Positions 6,886-23,908 of a stretch of 23,908 nucleotides of DNA are shown here, in pieces. The stretch is from positions 1-23,908 of the forward strand of contig JBGFRZ010000019.1 in the NCBI GenBank assembly GCA_041694835.1, read 5' to 3'. The first letter of the stretch is position 1. The number at the start of each line of letters is the position of its first letter. The position numbers were made by a program, and so were the translations under genes. Source of the DNA: Ignavibacteria bacterium. GTDB lineage: Bacteria; Elusimicrobiota; Endomicrobiia; PHAN01. Under the pieces are notes generated by a model, which did not search any database, was not told where the DNA came from, and saw only the letters and a program-made list of their open reading frames with translations.

Positions 6886-8349
6886 ATGATTGAAAAAAAA
6901 TACGAGGCCGTAATAGGTCTTGAGGTTCACACACACTTAAAGACAAAAAGCAAAATTTTCTGCGGATGTTCGACGGAATTCGGCCAACCGCCTAACATAA
7001 ACATCTGCCCCATCTGCACTGGCTATCCCGGGGTTTTACCCGCCTTAAACGAGAGAGCTGTCGGACTTCTCATAAAAACGGCCATGGGACTTAACTGCAA
7101 AATAAACGGACACTCCGTTCTTGCCAGAAAGCATTACTTTTATCCCGATCTTCCAAAAAACTTTCAGATATCTCAGTACGAGCTGCCACTTGCCTATGAC
7201 GGTGGCGTGGAAATTCCACTTGAGGGTGGCTCGATAAAAAAAATAAGGATAAAAAGGATTCATCTAGAGGAGGATGCGGGGAAACTTCTCCACGCGCTTG
7301 GCTCCAGGGAGTTGGATTACTCGCTTGTTGACTACAATAGAGCCGGCGTTCCTTTAATGGAAATAGTGACCGAGCCCGACATAACTACCCCTCAGGAGGC
7401 ATGGCAGTATCTCAATACTTTAAAATTGATACTTGAATATCTTGAGGTCTCCGAGTGCAACATGGAGGAGGGCAAGTTTAGATGCGATGCTAATATATCG
7501 CTTCGACCGGTGGGACAGATATCGTTGGGTGTTAAGACTGAACTTAAAAACATGAATACGACAAAGGGCGTAAGGGATGCGCTCGAATACGAGATAAAAA
7601 GGCAGACGGAAGTAATTCTGTCCGGTGGAGAAATAATTCAAGAAACGCGTCTTTACGACGCTTCGACGGATACGACGTCCCCGATGAGGACGAAAGAGGA
7701 AGCCCACGACTACAGATACTTCCCTGAGCCGGATATTCCACCCCTCGAGCTTTCGGAAGAATTTATAGAAAAAATCAGAAAGGAAATCGTCGAGCTGCCC
7801 GGAGAAAGAAAAAGAAGATTTATGTCCGAATACGGGCTTTCGGAGTACGACGCGGGCGTTCTTACTTCCGAAAAATCGATAGCGGATTATTTTGAAAGTT
7901 GTCTGAACGCTTTTGAAAAAGAAAAAGCCTCCGCTGCAAAACCTGTTGCGAACTGGATTATAACGGAACTCCTCGGGGAATTAAACAAGGATAAAAAGGA
8001 CATCAAGGGAGCCCCCATCAAGACGGAGAACCTTGCGTCTCTTGTAAAACTTATTTTGAACAATATTATTTCAGGCAAAATCGCAAAAAGCGTATTTAAG
8101 GAGATGTACTTGACGGGAAAATCCCCCGATTCTATAATAAAGGAAAAAAATCTTGTTCAGATTACGGACGAAGTCGCCATAAAAAAACTCTGCGAGGATG
8201 CTATTGAGGAGAATCCTGGCGCCGTGAAAGAGTACAGAGCCGGAAAAGAGCGCGCGATTGGTTCCCTTGTGGGTGCGGTAATGAAAAAATCGCAGGGTAA
8301 AGCTAACCCGAATATCGTCAACGATATGCTAAAAAAAATACTCTCCTGA
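6886..8349 (+). CDS. gatB: Asp/Glu-tRNA amidotransferase subunit B
   Basis: IGLEVH, YFYPDLPK, HLEEDAGK, RCDANIS and DYRYFPEPD motifs, C-terminal YqeY-like domain. Confidence 0.99.
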   Translation: MIEKKYEAVIGLEVHTHLKTKSKIFCGCSTEFGQPPNINICPICTGYPGVLPALNERAVGLLIKTAMGLNCKINGHSVLARKHYFYPDLPKNFQISQYELPLAYDGGVEIPLEGGSIKKIRIKRIHLEEDAGKLLHALGSRELDYSLVDYNRAGVPLMEIVTEPDITTPQEAWQYLNTLKLILEYLEVSECNMEEGKFRCDANISLRPVGQISLGVKTELKNMNTTKGVRDALEYEIKRQTEVILSGGEIIQETRLYDASTDTTSPMRTKEEAHDYRYFPEPDIPPLELSEEFIEKIRKEIVELPGERKRRFMSEYGLSEYDAGVLTSEKSIADYFESCLNAFEKEKASAAKPVANWIITELLGELNKDKKDIKGAPIKTENLASLVKLILNNIISGKIAKSVFKEMYLTGKSPDSIIKEKNLVQITDEVAIKKLCEDAIEENPGAVKEYRAGKERAIGSLVGAVMKKSQGKANPNIVNDMLKKILS

Positions 8350-19646: not shown

Positions 19647-20263
19647 GCTCTCCTCCGTGGAGTCTTTCTCCTTGGACTTCTCAACTCCCCCCTTTGAATC
19701 GTCACTCTGTTTATAAGAATATCGTTTAGCGGCATATCTCTCGGCCCTCTTTGAACCCTTGCGATTTTGTTTACAATATCCTGTCCTTCTATCACCTGTC
19801 CGAAAATTGTGTGCCGCCCGTCGAGCCATGGCGTCGGAACTTCGGTTATGAAAAACTGGCTGCCGTTGGTGTCAGGTCCGGAGTTGGCCATCGCAAGTCT
19901 TCCGGGTTTGTCGAATTTCAAATCTGAAATCTCATCCTTAAACTTGTATCCCGGTCCGCCCATGCCATTTCCGAGGGGACATCCTCCCTGAATCATGAAC
20001 TCCGGTATGACCCTGTGGAATTTCAATCCGTCGTAAAACTTCCTTTTTAACGGCGTCCCCGTTTTTGTGTTGATAAATTCTTTTTTACCTTCCGCAAGGG
20101 CGATAAAGTTTTCGACCGTAATGGGGGCTTTCTCGTGGAATAATTCAAACACCATTTTGCCCATAGACGTTTCAAAAATAGCATACATTTTTTGGGAAGG
20201 TTTTTCCGCTTGGGCAAAAATAAAAGATGAAGAAGCGAAAAAAACTGCAAGGAATTTAAACAT
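19643..20263 (-). CDS. cyclophilin-type peptidyl-prolyl cis-trans isomerase with signal peptide
   Basis: FHRVIPEFMIQGG, AMANSGPDTNGSQFFIT and WLDGRHTIFGQV motifs. ATG 20263 preceded by AGGAGAGG. N-terminal MFKFLAVFFASSSFIFAQ. Confidence 0.95.
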   Translation of the reverse strand: MFKFLAVFFASSSFIFAQAEKPSQKMYAIFETSMGKMVFELFHEKAPITVENFIALAEGKKEFINTKTGTPLKRKFYDGLKFHRVIPEFMIQGGCPLGNGMGGPGYKFKDEISDLKFDKPGRLAMANSGPDTNGSQFFITEVPTPWLDGRHTIFGQVIEGQDIVNKIARVQRGPRDMPLNDILINRVTIQRGELRSPRRKTPRRRA

Positions 20264-20339
20264 GGGCTTTACCTCTCCTGTAATTTTACCCCGCACTTCG
20301 TCCGTGTTGCAGGGTTGTACTGAATTATATACTGAATTA

Positions 20340-20517
20340 TGAGATTATTGAAAAACCCATCTTTTTCACTTAAAGAGCAGTTTCTTAACGGTTAAAAGTT
20401 TCAATCAGACCGCAAAACTCCTCGCTTTGCTCGTCGGACATTGCGGTCTAAACGATTTCAACTTTTAACCTAAAACTGCCAAATCGTTCAAAAGATTAAG
20501 GTTTTTCAACGAGCTCA
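20340..20517. mobile_element. 178-bp MITE-like palindromic element with TTA target-site duplication
   Basis: TTA|TGAGATTATTGAAAAACC...GGTTTTTCAACGAGCTCA|TTA with nested inverted arms. Second copy at 23815. Confidence 0.8.
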
Positions 20518-20586
20518 TTATATAAAAAAATTAAAGATTTTCCAATATAGAATCGTAAAGTTTTTTGAAGCGTCGAAACGGACGGA

Positions 20587-20615
20587 TTGACATATCCTTT
20601 TATATAATGTAAAAT
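20587..20615 (+). promoter_or_regulatory. sigma70-type promoter for the nuclease-GGDEF operon (leaderless geometry)
   Basis: TTGACA-N17-TAAAAT ending 6 nt before ATG 20622, with no Shine-Dalgarno. Confidence 0.65.
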
Positions 20616-20621
20616 TACGAT

Positions 20622-22442
20622 ATGACAGAGAAGAGATACGTCAGCTACAGTATGCTTTCCATTTATGACGAATGCCCTCAGAAGTATAAATTCCACTACA
20701 AGGAAGGTCTTGCCAAACTTTACAGGCAGGAAAAGCCCCATCTTTCTTTCGGTGAAAGCCTCCATAAGGCTCTCGAGGATTTTTTTAAGATAAAAAATAT
20801 AAAAGACAGGACAAAAGACAAATTGACGGATATCTTAAAAATGGTATGGGTCGGAAAGGGGTATTTGTCGCAAGAGGAGGAACAGCAGCATTTCCATGCC
20901 GCCCAGCATCTTCTTGAAATATTTTATGACACACAGGACATAACGGTTACACCTTTCAGGCTTGAAGAGTTTTTTAGGGTTCCTGTAGGCGATTTTTTTC
21001 TGACGGGGCGCATCGACAGAATAGACATTATACCCGCAACCACCGACAAGGTCGAGATCATAGACTACAAGACTGGTAAATTCATGCCTAAGCAGGAAGA
21101 TATAGACAATGATCTTCAGATGTCCGTTTACGCCCTCGCCGCGACCAAAAAATTTCCCAGGTTGTATCCTGAAAAAATATCGGTTTATTTTTTCCAACAC
21201 GGTCAGAAGCTAACCACGAAAAGAACGCCCCGCGAACTACGAGCTATCGAGGAAGATCTGATAAACAAAGTGGCGGTGATTTCATCTGATTCCGAATTTT
21301 CCGCAAAAGAGTCTCAGTTCTGCAAATTCTGCGATTATCTTCTGATATGCCCGCTCATGGGTCTTGCCGCTTCTCCAAGCGGAGTTAAAACGAAAGTCGA
21401 AGAGCATCTTGACAAAAAGCAACAGCTCGAGGAAGAACTTAAAAAAACCGCGGAATACTATAAGGCGATAACGCAGGATCTTTACGCTATACATAACTAT
21501 TCACTGAACATATCGTCGACTCTTGACATAAAAGTTCTTGCCCAAAAAGTCTCCGATGCGTTCAGAGAAATATCGGCAGCCTCGCGCTCAGCCCTTTTTT
21601 TATGGGACGAAGGCGAGGGAAAATTTATTCCCCTTGAATGTCACAAAATGGAGATAGCCGATAACTTTTATGTTGAGGAACAGAAGGTTTTTGATTCGGT
21701 TAAAAAGTGCAATTTGGGCATCTGTGCTTGCGATAGCTATTCCCCCGACAACCCTTTCTCTTATATAATAGATGAGTCGTTGAAAATAAAAAATTACATA
21801 GTGGCGTCACTTATGGCGAAGGATAAAATTTTCGGGCTTATGATTCTTGCTGATATATCAGGCCCTCTCCCGCCCACCAACAAACATCTTCATATATTGA
21901 TTATGAGCTTATCCGACCAGTCCGCCATATCAATATACAACGCCTTGCTTTACAGGTACGCCATCTACGACGGGCTTACGAAGCTTTTCAGGGGGAGCCA
22001 CTTCCAGGAGAGATTGAAACAGGAAATGACGAGGGTGGCGAGAACGGGCGAGAAACTCACCCTCATAATGGCTGATATAGATAATTTTAAAAAAATAAAC
22101 GACACTTTCGGACATGTCGAGGGAGACAGAATCCTCAGAGAAGTAGGCAGGGAGATAAAATCAAAGATAAGGGCATCCGATATCGCAGGGAGATATGGCG
22201 GTGAGGAGTTCACAGTGCTTCTTACGGCGACCGACAGGGCGGGGGGCGTTTGTGTCGCTGAAGCCATAAGAAAGAATATCGAGACCAACATCCGCACTTC
22301 AGACAACGGTCAAGTGACTGCGAGCTTCGGCGTTGCCGAGTACAACAAGGAAATAAGGAATCCATCGGATTTTATAAAAATGGCCGACGACAGACTCTAC
22401 GAAGCAAAGCGCTCCGGGAAAAACAGGGTGGTAGGTTTGTAA
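20622..22442 (+). CDS. PD-(D/E)XK (AddB/RecB/Cas4-like, 4-Cys) nuclease - coiled coil - GAF - GGDEF diguanylate cyclase fusion
   Basis: SYS..ECP (C18), G..H48, E115, GRIDRID (D132), DYKTG (D148/K150), Q166xxxY170, C234-x2-C237-x5-C243. GAF ending 'AISIYNALLY'. DGLTKL, DIDNFKKINDTFGH..GD, RxxD (517-520), GGEEF (526-530), AD..LY.AK.SGKNRV. Confidence 0.9.
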   Translation: MTEKRYVSYSMLSIYDECPQKYKFHYKEGLAKLYRQEKPHLSFGESLHKALEDFFKIKNIKDRTKDKLTDILKMVWVGKGYLSQEEEQQHFHAAQHLLEIFYDTQDITVTPFRLEEFFRVPVGDFFLTGRIDRIDIIPATTDKVEIIDYKTGKFMPKQEDIDNDLQMSVYALAATKKFPRLYPEKISVYFFQHGQKLTTKRTPRELRAIEEDLINKVAVISSDSEFSAKESQFCKFCDYLLICPLMGLAASPSGVKTKVEEHLDKKQQLEEELKKTAEYYKAITQDLYAIHNYSLNISSTLDIKVLAQKVSDAFREISAASRSALFLWDEGEGKFIPLECHKMEIADNFYVEEQKVFDSVKKCNLGICACDSYSPDNPFSYIIDESLKIKNYIVASLMAKDKIFGLMILADISGPLPPTNKHLHILIMSLSDQSAISIYNALLYRYAIYDGLTKLFRGSHFQERLKQEMTRVARTGEKLTLIMADIDNFKKINDTFGHVEGDRILREVGREIKSKIRASDIAGRYGGEEFTVLLTATDRAGGVCVAEAIRKNIETNIRTSDNGQVTASFGVAEYNKEIRNPSDFIKMADDRLYEAKRSGKNRVVGL

Positions 22443-23146
22443 TGAGATTTTTGAAGTTTGTAGCGGCGGTTTTGTTTATTCCCTTTGTTTTTGCTGCGAC
22501 GTTTACATACGGCAAATTTTTCATTGACTTTGCTGTGAGGTCATTTAACGAGTACTGGAGTTTTTGGATAGGGCTTTTCTGTTATCCGATTTTTCAGACT
22601 TTTGTTTATAAACCGACAAGATTTTATATAATAGAACATGAAGTTACCCACTCGGTCTTTGCCATCTTTTCAGGCGCAAAGTTGAAGAAGTTCTCGGTAA
22701 AAAAAGACAACGGAAGTGTTGTGGTTGACAAGACCAACACGCTCATAACACTCGCACCTTATTTTTTCCCATTTTTCGCGATTAGTTTTTTTCTGTTATG
22801 GAAATCTTTGCTTTATTTTTATCCTCTCTTTATAAAATACTCGCTGATTTTTTACGGGATAAGCGGCGCTTTGTTGAGTTTTCATTTTTTTATGACGGTT
22901 TCCGCCGTATTTCACGGGCAGCCCGATATTAAAAGCGAGGGTGTTATTTTTTCTCTGGTTTTCATTTTCATAGTTTATATATTTCTTTCGGTTTTTTTCA
23001 TCAAGCTACTTTTTGGAGAGAGTCCCGCTAGTATCGAGCTGAAAGTTTTTTTCGGAGACTTAAAGGATAACACCGTCGTCGTTTACAGCCGAATATACAA
23101 CTTTGTCAAGAACGAAATATGCCCCATCATCTTACACAAGAAATAA
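22442..23146 (+). CDS. M50-like (M50B-type) membrane zinc metallopeptidase
   Basis: Multi-TM protein with HEVTH (HExxH), 'LAPYFFP' and a distal Asp (GQPD). ATG overlaps the upstream stop (TAATG). Confidence 0.65.
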   Translation: MRFLKFVAAVLFIPFVFAATFTYGKFFIDFAVRSFNEYWSFWIGLFCYPIFQTFVYKPTRFYIIEHEVTHSVFAIFSGAKLKKFSVKKDNGSVVVDKTNTLITLAPYFFPFFAISFFLLWKSLLYFYPLFIKYSLIFYGISGALLSFHFFMTVSAVFHGQPDIKSEGVIFSLVFIFIVYIFLSVFFIKLLFGESPASIELKVFFGDLKDNTVVVYSRIYNFVKNEICPIILHKK

Positions 23147-23718
23147 AAAGGAAACTCTTCCATCTTCTGACACTAATCTATGTGGTGGGATACTGGTTTT
23201 TGCCGCGCAAGATATTGATAACGGGCTTGGGTATCACGATATTTACGGCTCTTGTCATAGAGATAGTAAGGCTCAGACATGAGAGATTCAATAAATTCAT
23301 ACAGTGGCTCGGGATTCTGAGAAAAAAAGAGGAATACCACTTCAGCGGATTGATATGGACGCTCACAGGCGGTTTTTTCACGATATATTTCTTTGAAAAT
23401 ACGGCGAACCCCGTAACAAAAAACATAGTCATCGTAAGTTTGCTCTACGCTGCACTCGGCGACACCGCCGCGGCGATTTTCGGAAGGCTTTACGGGAAAA
23501 TAAAAATCGGAGAAAAAACGCTCGAAGGCAGCCTTGCGTGTCTTTTTGTGAATTTAGTTGTAGGATATTTTTTTCTCCCGTGGCCTATTTTTCTGATAGG
23601 AGCGCTGGCATCAACATTCTTTGAGATTATTCACTGGCCATTGAATGATAACTTATGGCTCCCCGTGCTTTCGGCCAGCGCCATAACGCATTTGATGATG
23701 AGATACACCTTCCTTTAA
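23119..23718 (+). CDS. CTP-dependent polyprenol/phytol/dolichol/diacylglycerol kinase family (SEC59/DGK1/VTE5-like)
   Basis: RKLFHL, GDTAAAIFGRLYGK, KTLEGSLAC and NDNL motifs. Multi-TM. Confidence 0.85.
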   Translation: MPHHLTQEIKRKLFHLLTLIYVVGYWFLPRKILITGLGITIFTALVIEIVRLRHERFNKFIQWLGILRKKEEYHFSGLIWTLTGGFFTIYFFENTANPVTKNIVIVSLLYAALGDTAAAIFGRLYGKIKIGEKTLEGSLACLFVNLVVGYFFLPWPIFLIGALASTFFEIIHWPLNDNLWLPVLSASAITHLMMRYTFL

Positions 23719-23814
23719 GATGTCAGACTATCATAAAAGTATAAAAAACAGGCTCTTCTCCAAATGTTGTTGTAACATTGGGTAAGGATTTTGCAATACC
23801 GCTATGATGTATAA

Positions 23815-23908
23815 TGAGATTGTTGAAAAACCCATCTTTTTCACTTAAAGGGCAGTTTCTTAACGGTTAAAAGTTTCAATCAGACCGCAAAACTCCTCGC
23901 TTTGCTCG
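23815..23908. mobile_element. second copy of the MITE, truncated by the window end
   Basis: 92/94 identical to 20340-20433, same orientation, preceded by TAA. Confidence 0.85.

Follow-up and report, generated by a model that had tools for sequence, protein, structure and literature searches.

The 23,908-nucleotide stretch analysed here (the window) is the whole 23.9-kb contig JBGFRZ010000019.1 of a 1.9-Mb, 97%-complete genome of the Elusimicrobiota (assembly GCA_041694835.1). It carries a gene in which a putative iron-sulfur (4Fe-4S) nuclease of the PD-(D/E)XK type is fused, through a coiled coil and a GAF domain, to a GGDEF diguanylate cyclase, the predicted product being cyclic di-GMP (c-di-GMP). 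By all sequence tests the protein counts as a member of both the GGDEF cyclase and the PDDEXK_1 nuclease families, and its nuclease and cyclase ends are both under purifying selection. We propose, with a probability of roughly 0.45, that engagement of DNA ends by the paired nuclease domains sets the c-di-GMP output of a bifunctional dimeric enzyme. As far as searched, a cyclase with an enzymatically intact-looking nuclease as its N-terminal module appears to be new. The gene and its modules are as follows.

20622..22442, + strand: nuclease-coiled coil-GAF-GGDEF fusion gene (P0001), a single unbroken open reading frame (ORF) of 606 amino acids.
20640..21353, + strand: Cas4/AddB/AdnA-type PD-(D/E)XK nuclease domain, residues 7-244, with a 1+3 cysteine set (C18; C234-x2-C237-x5-C243).
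21357..21515, + strand: flexible linker (residues 246-257) leading into a long helix (258-298), presumed to be a dimerising coiled coil, from the AlphaFold2 (AF2) model.
21528..21935, + strand: GAF domain (Pfam), residues 303-438, the module of lowest conservation.
21960..22427, + strand: GGDEF diguanylate cyclase domain (Pfam), residues 447-602, with a GGEEF active site (A-site) and an RxxD inhibitory site (I-site).

An earlier reading made from the letters alone (the sequence-only reading) had proposed one uninterrupted ORF with a PDDEXK_1 + GAF + GGDEF architecture, and Pfam places all three domains above cut-off: PDDEXK_1 (PF12705) at residues 7-244 (E 3.2e-34, 119.4 bits, cut-off 22), GAF at 303-438 (E 4.7e-5, 24.4 bits, barely above its cut-off of 22.4) and GGDEF (PF00990) at 447-602 (E 3.9e-43, 147.5 bits, cut-off 23.8). 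In NCBIfam the cyclase end reaches 169.1 bits against TIGR00254 (cut-off 37.4), and the N-terminus matches Cas4, AddB and AddA, all below threshold. The AF2 model, built on 20 family members and with a mean predicted local distance difference test (pLDDT) score of 85.8, contains a single long helix at residues 258-298, at the place where a coiled coil had been read (~255-295). This helix is preceded by a disordered segment at 249-254 (pLDDT <50) and followed by the GAF domain, a second long helix (421-448) and the GGDEF domain.

The nuclease motifs that had been read from the sequence (H48, E115, D132, D148-x-K150 and QxxxY) all lie at the expected places, and we take their catalytic roles from knowledge of the family. 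In an alignment of 20 sequences, whose members are 33-68% identical to the window protein, C18, C234, C237, C243, H48, E115, D132, D148, K150, Q166 and Y170 are invariant (20/20). Among 13 orthologues derived from genomes, which take in lineages outside that alignment, D132, D148, K150, Q166 and the four cysteines are again invariant (13/13), but two of the motif positions vary: at position 115 ten have E, two N and one D, the adjacent residue 116 being acidic (E or D) in all 13, and the tyrosine of QxxxY is kept in nine, giving way to F in two and to S and C in one each. The 1+3 cysteine set, likewise expected from the earlier reading, follows the C...CX2CX5C pattern, which we take to be common to AdnAB/AddB-type nucleases, one N-terminal cysteine together with CX2CX5C presumably forming the 4Fe-4S ligand set.

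The fold of the nuclease module was characterised by a VIA-wide structure search, independent of Foldseek, which returned only cyclase matches when queried with the full fusion model. The best structural match of the nuclease model (residues 1-246) is the AdnA nuclease 9np6_A (Z 20.8, root-mean-square deviation 3.0, 232 residues aligned, 19% identity), and a second AdnA-type match is 6ppu_A (Z 19.8). Residues 1-247 align with ACE1, an Argonaute-associated Cas4-family nuclease (9iab_B; Z 18.0, 231 of 266 residues aligned), and residues 2-252 with the putative exonuclease 3l0a (Z 15.4). By sequence, the solved relatives found with phmmer are AdnA/AdnB only, at a marginal E of 0.29, and the alignment places D148 opposite AdnB D1014, a residue changed in the nuclease-dead AdnAB structure.

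Two kinds of proteins are the nearest non-fused sequence relatives of the module: the C-terminal nuclease domains of UvrD/PcrA-type helicase-nucleases (950-1000 amino acids; Patescibacteria and other phyla), and stand-alone nucleases of 240-460 amino acids, some of which are named 'RecB family exonuclease' at source. One stand-alone paralogue, of 257 amino acids and 29% identity, is present in the window's own genome (G000 contig C11, 3300-3995). It lies between genes for an RsmD-like methyltransferase and an amino-acid kinase, about 3 kb from a PilZ gene (7250-7546), a closeness that is probably a coincidence. In a separate group of proteins (P0147, P0148, P0149, P0151-P0154 and others) 2 to 5 copies of the Cas4-like PDDEXK_1 domain stand in tandem; these rank top in the profile search, P0147 having 1297 amino acids and five nuclease copies, and one cluster member is named 'RecB family exonuclease' at source.

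At the other end of the protein, the GGEEF A-site, the RxxD I-site and the guanine-binding segment FKKINDTFGHVEGD are all present as had been read, with RASD at 517-520, five residues ahead of GGEEF at 526-530, and they are invariant in the 20 aligned members. The same holds (20/20) for D485, D487, N493, D494, H498, G501, R517 and D520, of which D485 and D487 (a DxD metal site) and N493/D494 (guanine binding) have functional roles that we recall from the family and take to apply here. In structure comparisons the GGDEF domain scores Z ~26 to WspR, DgcR, PleD and others (3i5c, 3bre, 6zxc, 6hbz), and the GAF and GGDEF domains together align with the cyclase Dcsbis (4zmu_A) at Z 25.2 over 292 residues. 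The GAF domain alone matches cyclic-nucleotide-type GAFs (PDE2A, PDE5A, PDE6, Lcd1; Z ~16) and phytochrome GAFs, with an overall Z of ~14-16. Hybrid promiscuous (Hypr) GGDEF enzymes, which produce cyclic GMP-AMP (cGAMP), are recognised by a serine in place of the aspartate at the last position of GHxxGD. That residue is Asp in the window protein and in 25/25 GGDEF-bearing rows of the variant search described below, never Ser; D502, as it is numbered here, is kept in 19/20 aligned members, with Asn in P0020. The protein is thus predicted not to be a Hypr-GGDEF, and c-di-GMP is favoured over cGAMP, as had been argued from the same aspartate.

Searching with residues 1-300 recovered 19 further protein clusters in which PDDEXK_1, GAF and GGDEF are unbroken (586-654 amino acids; 38-71% identity over residues 1-300). 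Source names seen for some of them are 'hypothetical protein', 'diguanylate cyclase [Elusimicrobiota bacterium]' and 'diguanylate cyclase [Endomicrobia / Endomicrobiia bacterium]'; no full-length member has a name that mentions the nuclease, and 'PD-(D/E)XK nuclease family protein' and 'RecB family exonuclease' appear only on truncated cluster members. When 401 genomes, a sample of the phylum to which the window belongs, were scanned with a profile, the full-length fusion turned up in 14, the window's included, distributed over two classes, in families f1 (3 of 3), f5 (4), f9 (1), f19 (5) and f23 (1). One copy (G067) has its frame broken twice within the last ~90 codons, through either decay or assembly error, and a fifteenth genome (G396) has the two halves split between two contig ends. 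One more copy, of 622 residues, came from an unclassified metagenome-assembled genome (MAG; L092) when species-representative genomes were scanned. The same unbroken architecture in independent clusters, in phylum genomes and in L092 rules out an assembly chimera or a split gene, and the fusion is genuine, as the earlier reading had supposed, rather than two separate genes. As far as sampled, it is confined to the Elusimicrobiota and a few unclassified MAGs.

Conservation is uneven along the chain. Mean pairwise identity is 52.7% for the nuclease, 43.1% for the coiled coil, 29.3% for the GAF and 54.4% for the GGDEF domain, and the ratio of nonsynonymous to synonymous substitution rates (dN/dS), taken from pairs with unsaturated dS, is 0.06-0.09 for the nuclease, 0.05-0.10 for linker and coiled coil, 0.16-0.24 for GAF and 0.05-0.10 for GGDEF. 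The catalytic and cofactor motifs of both halves are kept under purifying selection, in line with the view that both look catalytically intact. Within one genus (g42) the nuclease is 92-97% identical between congeners, versus 78-84% for panC and 74-87% for the downstream gene C1 (listed further below), so that the fusion is more conserved there than its flanking genes.

A profile of nuclease plus coiled coil was also searched against 1.84 billion representative proteins, and the best 150 matches were inspected for variants. Among them are 14 fusion-like rows with one N-terminal match each (profile positions ~3-300), together with several departures from the standard architecture. CX2CX5C is present in 27/27 rows checked, GGEEF in 25/25 GGDEF-bearing rows and RxxD in 23/25, being missing only in P0177 and in L056, the G107 orthologue. 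P0177 (435 amino acids, 'diguanylate cyclase [Elusimicrobiota bacterium]') is a nuclease joined by a short linker to a GGDEF domain, lacking GAF as well as RxxD. Two proteins, P0165 (716 amino acids) and P0179 (704 amino acids), each a single metagenomic observation, consist of nuclease, coiled coil, two GAF stretches and ~130 C-terminal residues that match no Pfam family and do not match the GGDEF part of the family profile; a degenerate GGDEF domain at this C-terminus was considered and is unsupported by hhalign and Pfam. In P0162 and P0171, the only rows with such a loss, the Asp of DxK is replaced by Tyr or Leu while the fold, the cysteines and GGEEF are kept, and in P0156 Gln replaces H48. 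In one g42 genome (G029; L052, G029:C48 1620-3386) the nuclease is only 60% identical to its congeners (L045, L047, L049, L054), which share 92-97% among themselves, and 75% identical to the domain from another genus, whereas the remaining modules (coiled coil, GAF and GGDEF) match those congeners at 88-98% identity and both flanking genes show ordinary divergence; this module-precise replacement means that the nuclease behaves as a discrete cassette. These natural variants (one without GAF, two without GGDEF, two without the catalytic Asp and one with a swapped nuclease) would make up a ready separation-of-function set.

The origin of the architecture is suggested by the cyclase side. The nearest cyclase paralogues align only with profile positions ~258-593, and the closest of them, G020 (385 amino acids), begins with a single transmembrane (TM) helix and continues into the same coiled-coil, GAF and GGDEF modules. 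The TM helix stands in place of the nuclease, which marks the N-terminal module as the exchangeable one; the nuclease fills a slot that is a membrane anchor in the sister cyclase family. In the ESM Atlas, among clusters of at least 50 members, those nearest to the fusion are ordinary cyclases of the GAF-GGDEF type, and PDDEXK_1 occurs in none of them.

In the mechanism that we propose, the protein would be a cytoplasmic dimer whose Cas4/AdnA-type 4Fe-4S nuclease is connected, by a short linker and then the coiled coil, to a GAF-GGDEF cyclase; the latter would produce c-di-GMP and be subject to product inhibition at its RxxD site. The two nuclease domains at the tip of the coiled coil would bind and trim DNA ends or single-stranded tails, and this engagement would set how the two GGDEF domains meet, either because the geometry of coiled coil and GAF changes or simply because the enzyme is brought to DNA. 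A DNA break, or linear DNA entering the cell, would thereby alter c-di-GMP, which PilZ proteins would read and HD-GYP enzymes degrade, and the function would be that of a c-di-GMP counterpart of DisA. The analysis establishes the architecture, the intact motifs, the purifying selection at both ends, a family pattern consistent with vertical inheritance and an operon-like link to C1; we infer that the protein binds an Fe-S cluster, dimerises and has both enzymatic activities, and also that DNA is its signal and which way control runs. The host genome, with 7 GGDEF matches over cut-off, 4 PilZ, 5 HD_5 (HD-GYP type) and 0 EAL, has an ordinary c-di-GMP network with both receivers and degraders.

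The reading of DNA as input is favoured because the nuclease occupies the N-terminal input slot as an exchangeable module, and because a minimal nuclease-GGDEF variant, P0177, exists. The two proteins that lack the DxK Asp and retain GGEEF (P0162, P0171) are as expected if binding rather than cutting suffices for signalling. The inputs known for c-di-GMP networks are light, gases, redox state, small ligands and phosphorylation. Should the two halves communicate, c-di-GMP would report directly on DNA integrity or on DNA entering the cell, much as c-di-AMP does through DisA, in a compact, soluble protein with two activities whose coupling would be testable in vitro; the fusion may in this way link DNA state to bacterial lifestyle signalling.

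Several observations weigh against DNA-controlled synthesis. The full-length fusion is absent from 387 of the 401 sampled genomes and has been lost often, which makes the gene dispensable. The segment joining nuclease to coiled coil in the clade of the window is long, variable (19-53 residues) and modelled as disordered, which argues against rigid allosteric coupling there. The strict retention of catalytic residues in most members seems to exceed what a pure DNA-binding sensor would need. P0165 and P0179 lack a detectable GGDEF domain, so the nuclease is their sole recognisable enzyme and may be a regulated output. The gene neighbourhood holds no DNA-repair-specific gene: recA lies three genes upstream of the fusion in the class other than the window's, and recA and panC are also there in fusion-less sister loci (L071, L073, L085). 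The conserved I-site, finally, counts against nucleic acid as the input and in favour of the opposite direction of control.

That opposite direction, in which the nuclease is the output and c-di-GMP at the I-site or a ligand of the GAF domain gates DNA processing, for repair or for degradation, by an enzyme that makes its own ligand, we hold to be unlikely. An output nuclease would fit the invariance of the nuclease core (20/20) with its dN/dS of 0.06-0.09, an RxxD motif invariant in 20/20 and present in 23/25 GGDEF-bearing rows, and the two proteins with an intact-looking nuclease and no detectable GGDEF (P0165, P0179); cyclic-nucleotide-activated PD-(D/E)XK nucleases are, moreover, known in defence systems. 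Yet GGEEF and the metal- and guanine-binding positions are invariant as well, which indicates that c-di-GMP synthesis is itself under selection, and regulatory domains usually stand N-terminal to the domain that they regulate. P0162 and P0171 keep GGEEF despite having lost the catalytic Asp of the nuclease, and P0177 and the G107 orthologue do without RxxD.

Two further explanations are each quite improbable. According to the first, the 4Fe-4S cluster senses O2, NO, oxidants or iron in these anaerobes and controls the cyclase, DNA being irrelevant. Some other regulators do sense gases or redox state through Fe-S clusters, and all 27 rows checked retain the four cysteines, the two without the DxK Asp among them, but the cluster in AddB-/Cas4-type nucleases is regarded as structural, and such a sensor would leave the invariance of D132, D148, K150, Q166 and H48 (20/20) unexplained. 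The nearest relatives of the domain, too, are helicase-nuclease fusions and, by source annotation, stand-alone RecB-family exonucleases. The second explanation, to which we give just as small a chance, holds that nuclease and GAF-regulated cyclase are independent enzymes on one chain, co-expressed or co-localised without communicating. The disordered linker of variable length in the window's clade, the exchange of the nuclease as a cassette in G029 and the 29%-identical stand-alone paralogue of 257 amino acids in the same genome would suit it. The linker from P244 to the helix is, however, fixed at 10-11 residues in 13/20 members, the 19-53 residues mentioned above being found in the window's own clade. 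Six families in two classes have also retained the fusion, with a distribution consistent with vertical descent, and in one genus its nuclease (92-97%) outstrips panC (78-84%) and C1 (74-87%) in identity.

The sequence-only reading had also raised an anti-phage role, which the analysis weakens: an alarm sent out by the cyclase when the nuclease meets phage DNA, as in abortive infection or in the cyclic-oligonucleotide-based anti-phage signalling system (CBASS), is very improbable. In its favour are the Cas4-family PADLOC matches (best E 2.4e-10), the reported cooperation of ACE1, the closest stand-alone structural match, with Argonaute against invading DNA (PMC12094033) and the patchy occurrence, frequent loss and single nuclease exchange between lineages. 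Against it stand housekeeping or envelope neighbours with no effector or other defence gene nearby, blank PADLOC results for the two downstream neighbours, trees and synteny that fit vertical inheritance at a fixed chromosomal site, and a product predicted to be ordinary c-di-GMP in a genome with 7 GGDEF matches. The PADLOC matches of the fusion protein itself are confined to generic Cas4-family and DruK nuclease folds, and C1 and P0122, the two downstream neighbours, have no PADLOC match; the fusion does not appear to be part of a PADLOC-listed defence system.

Comparison with characterised proteins places each end of the chain in a familiar group and the combination in none of them. The C-terminal 300 residues resemble GAF-GGDEF cyclases (Dcsbis, PA2771, 4zmu) and the coiled-coil-linked WspR, DgcR, DgcB and IsPadC, with which they have GGEEF, RxxD and a helical linker into the GGDEF domain in common. 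None of the matched cyclases carries a nuclease, and where they have a receiver, PAS, phytochrome or transmembrane input the fusion has an N-terminal Fe-S nuclease of 245 residues. With mycobacterial AdnAB and AddB-type nucleases the protein shares the nuclease fold and the C...CX2CX5C pattern; in contrast to AddAB, AdnAB and RecBCD, which have a helicase motor, neither the fusion protein nor its flanking genes contain a helicase family in Pfam, and it is predicted not to be a helicase-nuclease.

The fold is likewise that of stand-alone Cas4-family nucleases such as ACE1, and residues 133-244 give weak matches to Cas_Cas4, TIGR00372 and PADLOC Cas4 models, but here the nuclease is joined to a signalling enzyme. 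The matches fall below the cut-offs for Cas4 proper (PF01930, 20.0 against 22.7 bits; TIGR00372, 25.5 against 65), and no cas or Argonaute gene occurs among the annotated ORFs of the window; the protein is accordingly not classed as Cas4 proper by these models. ACE1 itself is reported to cooperate with Argonaute against invading DNA (PMC12094033).

The closest parallel in concept lies outside these families. DisA is a c-di-AMP synthase with a DNA-interacting module on the same chain and a helical spacer between the two. It differs from the fusion in its diadenylate cyclase (DAC) fold, its c-di-AMP product and its non-catalytic helix-hairpin-helix (HhH) DNA module, where the fusion has GGDEF and a nuclease; no domain is common to both, and the likeness may be one of functional analogy. 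The palm of Cas10 is GGDEF-like, and the idea of a second messenger coupled to nucleic acid is shared with Cas10 and with the CD-NTases of CBASS. Unlike these, the fusion has neither a CRISPR or CBASS context nor an adjacent effector; it has a canonical GGEEF and RxxD and follows a vertical, housekeeping-type pattern. The earlier reading knew of no characterised protein with this architecture, and full-text literature searches, within the articles that they covered, likewise found no description of a nuclease-GGDEF fusion.

Downstream of the fusion the window contains two genes for membrane proteins; the first of them, a conserved partner gene, had escaped the sequence-only reading, as had the family variants.

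22442..23146, + strand: C1 (P0121, 234 amino acids), a polytopic membrane protein with an HExxH motif, its start overlapping the fusion stop codon.
23119..23718, + strand: P0122 (199 amino acids), a second membrane protein, found after C1 in the window's class.

C1 lies directly 3' of the fusion on the same strand in 14/14 genome loci, start and stop touching or overlapping in 10 of the 14 by simple ORF calls. It also follows the GGDEF-bearing contig end in G396, and in the unclassified MAG L092 no C1 is found within 3 kb downstream of the fusion. Residues H66, E67, H70, H148, Q160 and D162 are invariant, as are the motifs HExxH, PYFxP, FH and QxD, and the protein weakly resembles the M50B or site-2 intramembrane metalloproteases: it scores E 3.2e-5 and 24.2 bits against Pfam Peptidase_M50B, below the cut-off of 26. 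Its AF2 model (pLDDT 90.6) matches SpoIVFB at Z 6.1 and RseP at Z 5.4 and 4.8, in the core only (model residues 50-170), and Foldseek gives E 0.25-0.95 against SpoIVFB and MjS2P. C1 is present in 366/401 phylum genomes, almost always as a single copy, which means that it does not need the fusion, and it may represent a new subfamily of intramembrane metalloproteases spread through the phylum.

The trees of the fusion and of C1, quick trees with a midpoint root and some long branches, both group by taxonomic family, and C1 sequences from fusion-bearing and fusion-less genomes are interleaved. In the related genomes examined that do not have the fusion, synteny is kept and the slot before C1 is empty of it; in one class a small membrane protein of HAMP-like type is missing as well, in family f5 an amidohydrolase. 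Tree and synteny patterns fit vertical inheritance with many losses, and an old fusion-C1 pair that was repeatedly lost. P0122 follows C1 in 6/9 fusion-bearing and 11/12 fusion-less loci of the window's class (17/21 in total) and has no Pfam, NCBIfam or PADLOC match. Further downstream in that class lie an ATP-binding cassette (ABC) ATPase, an ABC_tran_2 protein and a polysaccharide deacetylase. These neighbours allow a more elaborate scheme, which we consider doubtful, in which DNA ends or foreign linear DNA activate the cyclase, the nuclease detects and trims them, and the signal passes to envelope remodelling through a co-transcribed, site-2-protease-like C1 and the ABC transporter and polysaccharide deacetylase genes. 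If real, a DNA-activated cyclase would be the first sensor to convey the state of DNA directly into a c-di-GMP signal, and so the c-di-GMP equivalent of DisA or cGAS.

Upstream in the window stand genes for L19, RNase HII, YraN, a ComM-like protein, ClpB, glyS, DJ-1/PfpI and a cyclophilin (peptidyl-prolyl isomerase), a housekeeping setting rather than a defence island. In the other class recA, an alpha/beta hydrolase gene and panC precede the fusion. Across 20200-23908, gene junctions included, no terminator-like site was found on the + strand, and Rfam reports nothing at gathering thresholds on the whole window, the 325-nucleotide upstream spacer having no c-di-GMP riboswitch or known RNA. 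One promoter-like site lies in this region.

20587..20615, + strand: promoter-like site TTGACA-17-TAAAAT, a pattern match with 11/12 consensus positions, the best in the region.

The site ends 6 nucleotides ahead of the ATG, with no evident Shine-Dalgarno-like sequence between them, and TTGAC(A/T)-17-TAAAAT recurs 11-12 nucleotides before the start in two other genomes of the family (L046 and L050); the fusion transcript is predicted to be leaderless or nearly so.

The small HAMP-like membrane protein, c14 (L045 8359-8922 and homologues), has 187 amino acids, two TM helices and a HAMP-like segment. It is encoded directly upstream of the fusion in 6/6 fusion-bearing loci of families f19 and f23, with one gene between the two in L055, and is missing at that position in 6/6 fusion-less sister loci of f19 that were examined. 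In one class it looked like a partner that co-varies with the fusion. A homologue of c14 is present elsewhere in the window's genome (G000 contig C64, 4657-5139).

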